Assembly: GCF_054482595.1 (NCBI RefSeq)
Contig: NZ_CM137008.1
Reading direction: 5' to 3' (one strand)
DNA: 64,000 nt
In this document: positions 26,718 through 28,411 of the stretch, piece after piece
How the letters are laid out: each line of letters starts with the position of its first letter
How positions within the stretch are numbered: position 1 is the first letter of the stretch
Position numbers and translations under genes: made by a program
The notes under the pieces: generated by a model
Seen by the model: only the letters and a program-made list of their open reading frames with translations
Told to the model about the DNA's origin: nothing
The model's database searches: none

Positions 26718-28411
26718 GTGCAGCACGAGACAAAAATGGAAAACCAGAGCTGGTTGAAAAAACTTGCGCGCCGCCTGGGGCCTGGTCATGTCGTTAATCT
26801 CTGCTTTATCGTAGTGCTGCTTTTTTCCACCTTGCTCACCTGGCGTGAAGTGGTGGTTCTGGAAGATGCCTATATCTCCAGTCAGCGTAATCATCTGGAA
26901 AACGTAGCTAACGCGCTCGATAAGCATCTGCAGTATAACGTCGACAAACTGATCTTTTTGCGTAATGGCATGCGCGAAGCTCTCGTAGCGCCACTGGATT
27001 TTACCTCTTTGCGTAATGCCGTAACGGAGTTCGAACAGCATCGCGACGATCACGCCTGGCAAATCGAACTCAACCGACGACGCACCCTGCCAGTCAATGG
27101 CGTTTCGGATGCATTAGTCAGCGAGGGAAATCTCCTGTCTCGCGAAAATGAAAGCCTCGACAATGAAGTTACTGCTGCACTGGAAGTTGGTTACTTGCTA
27201 CGACTGGCGCACAATTCCTCGTCGATGGTCGAACAAGCTATGTATGTCTCGCGTGCCGGATTTTACGTTTCGACGCAGCCGATCTTGTTTACGCGCAATG
27301 TACCAACGCGTTATTACGGCTATGTCACCCAACCCTGGTTTATCGGTCATTCTCAACGAGAAAATCGTCAACGCGCGGTACGTTGGTTCACCTCGCAGTC
27401 AGAACACGCCAGCAATACTGAACCTCAGGTTACCGTCAGTGTTCCGGTAGACAGTAATAACTACTGGTATGGCGTGCTGGGGATGAATATTCCTGTACGT
27501 ACCATGCAACAATTTCTACAAAACGCCATCGATAAAAACCTCGACGGTGAGTATCAGCTCTATGACAGTAAGCTGAGATTATTGACCTCTTCCAATCCTG
27601 ACCATTCAACAGGGAATATTTTTGATCCTCGTGAACTGGCCTTGCTGGCGCAGGCAATGGAACATGACACGCGGGGCGGCATTCGTATGAACAGTCGCTA
27701 TGTTAGCTGGGAACGGCTGGATCACTTTGACGGTGTGCTGGTGCGCGTCCATACGCTAAGCGAAGGGGTGCGCGGCGATTTCGGCAGCATCAGCATTGCA
27801 TTAACCCTGCTGTGGGCGCTCTTTACCTCCATGTTACTCATCTCCTGGTATGTGATTCGCCGGATGGTCAGCAACATGTATGTTCTGCAAAGCTCGTTGC
27901 AGTGGCAGGCGTGGCACGACACCTTAACCCATTTATATAACCGTGGCGCCCTGTTCGAAAAAGCCCGTCAGCTCGCTAAATTGTGTCAGACACACCAACA
28001 TCCTTTTTCTGTCATTCAGGTCGACCTTGACCATTTTAAGCGATTAATGACCGCTTTGGTCATCAGGCGGGCGACCGTGTGCTTTCTCATGCTGCCGGGT
28101 TAATTAGCAGTTCCTTGCGTGCTCTGGATGTTGCCGGGCGGGTCGGTGGCGAGGAATTTTGTGTGATTCTGCCAGGGGCGAATCTGGCGCAGGCCGCGGA
28201 AGTTGCAGAACGTATTCGCCTGAAGTTAAATGAAAAAGAGATGTTGATCGCCAAGAGTACGACGATACGCATTAGTGCCTCGCTGGGGGTAAGCAGCAGC
28301 GAGGAAACAGGTAATTATGATTTTGAACAACTCCAGTCACTGGCTGACCGTCGGCTTTATCTCGCTAAACAGGCAGGGCGCAATCGGGTGTTCGCGAGCG
28401 ACAACGCTTAA
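26718..28411 (+). pseudogene. dgcQ: Diguanylate cyclase DgcQ (YedQ) split by a frameshift inside the GGDEF domain
   Basis: GTG 26718 to stop 28411 spans 1694 nt (one short of a multiple of 3); ORF 26703..28103 carries the sensor/TM part and the start of GGDEF, ORF 28079..28411 carries the rest including GGEEF; both frames are open over 28040..28100. Confidence 0.8.

Follow-up and report, generated by a model that had tools for sequence, protein, structure and literature searches.

The dgcQ locus and its split reading frame

The window, meaning the whole 64,000-nucleotide stretch of DNA that was analyzed, is a segment of the Escherichia coli chromosome that reaches from yodB to uvrC and includes the fli genes. 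A gene-order comparison showed that the part from about 11.2 to 64 kb is collinear with E. coli YZLc23-1, running yodB-zinT-msrQP-hiuH-hprRS-hchA-porin-drpB-yedJ-dcm-vsr-yedA-yedI-yodC-dgcQ and continuing from dgcQ as dgcQ-yedP-yodD-dsrB-rcsA-fliR...fliE-...-fliDC-fliAZ-tcyJ...uvrYC. The gene of interest is flanked by yedI-yodC upstream and by yedP downstream. This order (yedI-yodC-dgcQ-yedP), together with 99.7 to 99.8% identity over 1801 nt to at least 30 RefSeq dgcQ loci, identifies it as the orthologue of dgcQ (yedQ), the name that it had been given in a preliminary description of this DNA. The matching genes, 99.8% identical to that of the window, are called "cellulose biosynthesis regulator diguanylate cyclase DgcQ" in RefSeq. 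DgcQ is a membrane-bound cyclase whose sensor faces the periplasm. In the intact relative, Pfam detected a CHASE7 domain (PF17151) at residues 41 to 227 followed by a GGDEF domain (PF00990) at residues 398 to 557, which is the architecture by which a dgcQ orthologue is recognized.

From its GTG start codon at 26718 to the end of its stop codon at 28411, all on the plus strand, dgcQ of the window measures 1694 nt, one short of a multiple of three, whereas the closest relatives have 1695 nt and 564 codons. The sole length difference from these relatives is the change from TTTTAAAGCG to TTTTAAGCG. Pairwise and multiple alignments to the closest intact relative, NZ_CP123266.1, the kind of comparison that the preliminary description had called for, pinpointed the indel as a single gap, with one A lost from an AAA run: TTTT-AAA-GCG in the relative reads TTTT-AA-GCG in the window, where the deleted junction sequence is TTTTAAGCGATTAATG. 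The lesion site, AA in place of the relatives' AAA, lies at 28038 to 28039 on the plus strand and was located by these alignments and by genome searches. Codon 441 is changed from AAA to AAG; Lys441 is kept, and residue 442 is the first to be read out of frame. Translation and the list of open reading frames showed an out-of-frame tail at 28041 to 28103 (plus strand), made up of 20 residues after Lys441 and the stop codon TAA at 28101 to 28103, which closes a product of 461 amino acids. The second frame is preceded by a TAA at 28037 to 28039, is open from 28040, reads GRVGGEEF, and runs to 28411. Thus, the length of the gene, the end of the upstream frame at 28103, and the course of the other frame were all as the preliminary description had given them. 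Its proposal that one A was lost also held, but the run had been placed at 28038 to 28040, the last of which is the G that belongs to the following codon.

A tblastn search with the protein of the intact relative split at the same point. Residues 1 to 443 matched 26718 to 28046 with 99.5% identity and no stops, and residues 440 to 564 matched 28034 to 28408 with 99.2% identity. The two proteins differ by the deletion alone, since the three single-nucleotide polymorphisms (SNPs) between the genes are synonymous. Compared to intact DgcQ/YedQ of E. coli (WP_242813358.1 of YZLc23-1; b1956 of K-12), the window has the same locus, the same gene order, and 99.8% nucleotide identity, and it likewise encodes CHASE7 and GGDEF sequences, the RxxD inhibitory site (I-site), and the GGEEF motif; however, one A is gone at codon 441, the frame is split, and the 564-amino-acid protein is not encoded. 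Codons 1 to 441, in the native frame with the GTG start (26718 to 28040, plus strand; open reading frame list, tblastn, and Pfam), cover the cytoplasmic N-terminus, the CHASE7 periplasmic sensor, the region between CHASE7 and GGDEF, and the first approximately 44 GGDEF residues up to D436-L-D438-H-F-K441. Codons 442 to 564 and the stop codon lie in the displaced frame (28040 to 28411, plus strand; translation, tblastn, and mapping to PleD) and carry N444, D453, the I-site RALD at residues 468 to 471, and the GGEEF motif at residues 477 to 481. The break after residue 441 falls about 44 residues into the 160-residue GGDEF domain, in its first quarter. The domain is therefore cut ahead of the GGEEF motif, as had been described, but not at its start, where the break had been put.

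To PleD (structures 1w25 and 2wb4), DgcQ could be aligned unambiguously and without gaps. D436 corresponds to D327, K441 to K332, N444 to N335, and D453 to D344, while R468-A-L-D471 matches the I-site R359xxD362 and G477-GEEF481 matches the active-site loop at residues 368 to 372. In PleD, the metal ligands are D327 and E370, and the guanine base is held by N335 and D344. The 461-amino-acid product keeps D436 and K441 and is without N444, D453, the I-site, and GGEEF. The displaced frame offers a single open reading frame that both possesses a start codon and includes GGEEF; it runs from GTG 28079 (V455) to 28411 (plus strand; open reading frame list) and gives 110 amino acids (MLSHAAG...) without D436, N444, and D453. 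Residues 442 to 454, with N444 and D453 among them, are absent from both products. An active diguanylate cyclase combines on a single polypeptide the Asp that binds metal, the Asn and Asp that bind guanine, and GG(D/E)EF, and neither product has this full set. Precomputed Pfam assignments for the equivalent fragments of another broken allele listed CHASE7 only for the 461-amino-acid piece and GGDEF only for the 110-amino-acid piece. Read as written, dgcQ of the window is divided by the loss of one base at a point that lies between the DxD/K and GGEEF motifs. Because the catalytic residues are separated or lost in the PleD mapping, we infer that no active cyclase would arise from this locus and that both fragments would be catalytically dead.

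Distribution of the lesion and other inactivated dgcQ alleles

We searched for the same lesion elsewhere with a 36-mer of the deleted junction, built so that each 28-nt seed spans the deletion. It was present in 0 of 5426 complete E. coli genomes, a count that would miss any genome with a further SNP in the central 28-mer; the corresponding 37-mer of the intact site, used as a positive control, was found in 5058 of the 5426. Exact look-ups of the truncated product were carried out for two protein backbones and several start codons. The 461-, 466-, and 455-amino-acid products were not found in a collection of about 15 billion proteins, nor was the same lesion on the neighboring I189T backbone, whereas the truncated product from GCA_946056105.1, another broken allele that served as positive control, was present in that collection. 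A 40-nt junction scan of JGI metagenome contigs gave no match. With all three types of search negative, a lineage-wide allele was rejected. The lesion is private to this assembly, and no independent assembly confirms it.

Other lesions of dgcQ are on record. The exact 110-amino-acid C-terminal product, which matches Pfam GGDEF, has been called on 10 other public contigs that have different dgcQ lesions and carry the same minority dgcQ allele as the window. In GCA_946056105.1, one T is lost from a T5 run at the window-equivalent position 28001, 37 nt upstream of the lesion described here. ERZ27285500 and SRR13502353 have a CAG-to-TAG nonsense mutation at the window-equivalent position 27906. 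Like the window, these three have point lesions in a well-preserved dgcQ that leave the identical 110-amino-acid C-terminal open reading frame, and the T5-run deletion of GCA_946056105.1 also cuts the catalytic domain. A protein look-up returned C-terminal fragments of DgcQ named for Shigella sonnei and Shigella boydii. In Shigella flexneri (2457T), dgcQ has a stop at codon 56 (PMC11327459); yedQ of enteroaggregative E. coli (EAEC) strains (O104:H4/55989) has a stop in the periplasmic domain (PMC4287979), and at least six EAEC strains have a dgcQ stop codon at position 312, as cited in PMC11327459. These alleles, too, are point lesions in an otherwise well-preserved gene, but the stops of S. 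flexneri and EAEC lie upstream of the GGDEF domain and may permit a restart that yields an intact domain, whereas the lesion of the window cuts the domain. Since each lesion is at a different position, dgcQ has been hit repeatedly and independently in other isolates.

Mutation, consensus error, recoding, and residual function

The preliminary description had set a true frameshift against a sequencing error. We judged this to be the right pair of alternatives, and the evidence leans toward a true mutation. If the strain actually had AAA and an intact 564-codon dgcQ, one base would have been dropped in sequencing or polishing. Such an error in the consensus or assembly would fit the type of change, a 1-nt difference in length at a TTTT/AAA homopolymer junction, which is a classic site for it; it would also fit a lesion unique among all collections searched and isolated within 22 kb that are otherwise identical to a relative with intact dgcQ. 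The quality of the surrounding sequence speaks against it. Positions 1 to 11500 and 28400 to 44000 match independent assemblies perfectly, and in all about 47 kb of the window match such assemblies base for base. The 27 kb of the two perfectly matching parts contain 852 homopolymer runs of 3 nt, 245 of 4 nt, 86 of 5 nt, 23 of 6 nt, 6 of 7 nt, and 1 of 8 nt, and all of these lengths are unchanged. Across the approximately 47 kb, about 1,200 runs of 3 to 8 nt show no difference in length; on a platform prone to errors in 3-nt runs, the 7- and 8-nt runs should be the first to show them. With no homopolymer discrepancies over this distance, a generally error-prone assembly was rejected. Among about 68 reference coding sequences (CDS) compared by tblastn, dgcQ alone is broken relative to its own closest relative; the other approximately 67 are full length, with neither frameshift nor stop. 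The only other partial match was to the longer tnpB of E. coli SM107, and the shorter copy of YZLc23-1 was matched in full. Other single-base indels relative to the relatives are intergenic or compensated and fall in regions of about 1.5% divergence. A Shigella-like decay of the genome was likewise rejected: no insertion sequence (IS) insertions were found over 53 kb collinear with E. coli, and the fli operons and about 67 other checked CDS are intact. Independent inactivation of dgcQ elsewhere also means that a real lesion is not improbable. Because the assembly looks accurate, general decay is absent, and dgcQ is recurrently inactivated, a real mutation is favored, and with it an ordinary kind of strain-specific dgcQ pseudogene; we put each at roughly 0.7. 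A consensus error is clearly less probable but deserves to be taken seriously.

Two further readings accept the deletion and grant the locus some function. A full-length DgcQ might be restored by -1 ribosomal frameshifting at UUU-AAG or by transcriptional slippage. The shift needed is indeed -1, and with four T's at this site, tRNA-Phe on UUU (28035 to 28037) could re-pair at UUU (28034 to 28036). However, CAT TTT AAG (followed by CGA) does not conform to the slippery heptamer X XXY YYZ, the slip would place the A-site tRNA-Lys opposite UAA and leave the first position mismatched, and the TAA at 28037 to 28039 in the -1 frame means that the slip must occur exactly at codon 441. The predicted RNA fold of 28041 to 28130 (-25.3 kcal/mol, compared to a shuffle mean of -25.4; z = 0.03) gives no stimulatory structure, and the arrangement is not conserved, with the in-frame AAA in 5058 genomes and AA in none of 5426. 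Runs of T4 and A2 are far too short for transcriptional slippage. The two overlapping frames could be joined by a -1 shift, as in dnaX (A AAA AAG), but in contrast to programmed -1 genes of this type, dgcQ of the window has neither heptamer nor structure nor conservation and resembles a pseudogene. With all three hallmarks missing, programmed frameshifting and slippage were rejected; recoding, which had been thought unlikely at the outset, is exceedingly improbable. We regard it as scarcely more credible that the 110-amino-acid open reading frame or the CHASE7-transmembrane (TM) fragment acts by partner binding, signal titration, or a dominant-negative effect on membrane cyclases. It is true that the 461-amino-acid product retains the complete CHASE7 sensor domain, that DgcQ is among the more strongly expressed diguanylate cyclases (DGCs) in K-12, so that a fragment may be made (PMC5635695), and that dgcQ, dgcE, and dgcN of S. 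flexneri, which have premature stops, still raised cyclic di-GMP (c-di-GMP) when expressed (PMC11327459). This "active pseudogene" behavior is not transferable, since the stops in those genes precede the GGDEF domain (PMC11327459), and in Shigella and EAEC a start codon close by restores a whole GGDEF domain (PMC11327459, PMC4287979), whereas the break in the window is inside it. A "degenerate but active" DGC, as described in PMC11327459, has a stop before GGDEF and a start nearby; in the window, the first start of the displaced frame is V455. A restart in the manner of Shigella or EAEC that leads to an active GGDEF domain was therefore rejected on the residue mapping: residues 442 to 454, with N444 and D453, would be missing from both products. 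No strong Shine-Dalgarno sequence precedes GTG 28079, and noncatalytic roles are pure speculation. It is also highly doubtful, if slightly less so, that selection has favored a stable, truncated 461-amino-acid CHASE7-TM protein, devoid of catalytic output, for a role as signal-binding decoy or dominant-negative partner, in which case the breakage of dgcQ within the GGDEF domain would amount to adaptive rewiring of local c-di-GMP signaling and not to simple decay. The 1-nt deletion 37 nt upstream in GCA_946056105.1 is compatible with selection for this very truncation and equally compatible with plain loss of function.

Under the favored reading, a real mutation, replication slippage would be the probable cause of the loss of one A from the short TTTT-AAA run. 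Ribosomes would leave the native frame after Lys441 and stop 20 codons later, yielding a 461-amino-acid membrane protein with the CHASE7 periplasmic sensor but no more than the first quarter of the GGDEF domain. The catalytic sequence beyond it would stay untranslated or, if read from GTG 28079, would lack three metal- or GTP-binding residues, and DgcQ would make no contribution to c-di-GMP in this strain. DgcQ owes its name to the stimulation of cellulose synthesis, and the literature connects it with csgD and biofilm control as well as with c-di-GMP signaling. It contributes to the inhibition of motility in pdeH mutants, and according to Da Re and Ghigo (2006), a study cited in PMC5635171, some commensal strains reportedly require it to make cellulose independently of CsgD. 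We infer that its loss would reduce DgcQ-dependent stimulation of cellulose and biofilm formation as well as the c-di-GMP braking of motility, and that motility would be slightly favored. An altered biofilm phenotype, which the preliminary description had put forward, is reasonable as a prediction, but it could be subtle because E. coli has about a dozen diguanylate cyclases, many of them besides DgcQ. DgcQ is among the more strongly expressed of these enzymes throughout growth in K-12 (PMC5635695), it is listed with the DGCs that act on csgD expression (PMC5635171), and its gain-of-function variant A361E leads to large increases in c-di-GMP (PMC5472908). If the lesion is real, the strain is without one of its roughly dozen diguanylate cyclases, and its balance of biofilm formation and motility could shift modestly. 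The lesion would be a further example of how individual lineages of E. coli, EAEC, and Shigella lose c-di-GMP genes, a pattern that is already documented. This kind of finding, an ordinary point inactivation of a well-known gene, is already known and opens no new question. For annotation, the locus should be given as a pseudogene, and the 110-amino-acid open reading frame should not be named a "GGDEF protein."

Ancestry and other features of the window

Positions 26473 to about 48500, a block of 22 kb from dgcQ through the fli operons to yedE, are identical to NZ_CP123266.1 save for four differences, all within dgcQ: three synonymous SNPs and the deletion. The block is identical to a small group of strains that includes YZLc23-1, AMSCJX04, and NCTC11129, and its flanks are 1 to 3% divergent from the YZLc23-1 group and closer to E. 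coli Santai and SM107, which points to a mosaic ancestry of the window (26473 to 48500 versus the flanks). The dgcQ allele of the window is a minority allele; 48 of 5363 genomes have a copy at least 99% identical, and 4539 have one that is only 90 to 95% identical. The SNPs at 27179, 27180, and 27185, the only substitutions in the 22 kb, differ from all close relatives of this allele and agree with the divergent majority allele (SM107). This cluster is possibly a very short gene conversion patch. It was rejected as further damage to the gene, since all three changes are synonymous and in the majority-allele state.

The beginning of the window, positions 1 to 11190, is the tail module of a lambdoid prophage, with the end of the tape-measure gene, M, L, C40/K, I, J, Lom, a tail fiber gene, and Tfa. 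Over 11.5 kb, E. coli SM107 and O157:H16 Santai share this prophage end with 100% identity. The chromosome picks up again at a point that in YZLc23-1 is within a tRNA-Ser gene, and ARAGORN detected no complete tRNA in the window; the junction near 11.2 kb looks like an attR remnant. Between hchA and drpB, at 19479 to 20663 on the minus strand, is an OmpC-family porin gene that is strongly divergent among strains. It is intact in the window, and its protein is 55% identical to the porin of YZLc23-1 and 83% identical to "ompC" of SM107. Compared to YZLc23-1, drpB contains an in-frame 21-bp tandem duplication at 21390 to 21410; in SM107, drpB is annotated as two CDS. At 22867 to 22875, dcm shows four compensating single-base indels (+1, +1, -1, -1) relative to YZLc23-1, despite which Dcm is encoded at full length, with 97% identity.

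An IS200/IS605 tnpA gene (minus strand) with an adjoining shortened tnpB is located at 45163 to 46414. The tnpB product has 272 amino acids, compared to 387 in SM107, and the element is identical to the YZLc23-1 copy. At 51664 to 54890, the window has another fliD-fliC region in place of the one in YZLc23-1; FliD has 50% amino acid identity, and the central part of fliC fails to align. The best DNA matches for 44 to 64 kb were H16 strains, with 99.4% identity to O157:H16 Santai and 98.8% to O6:H16.
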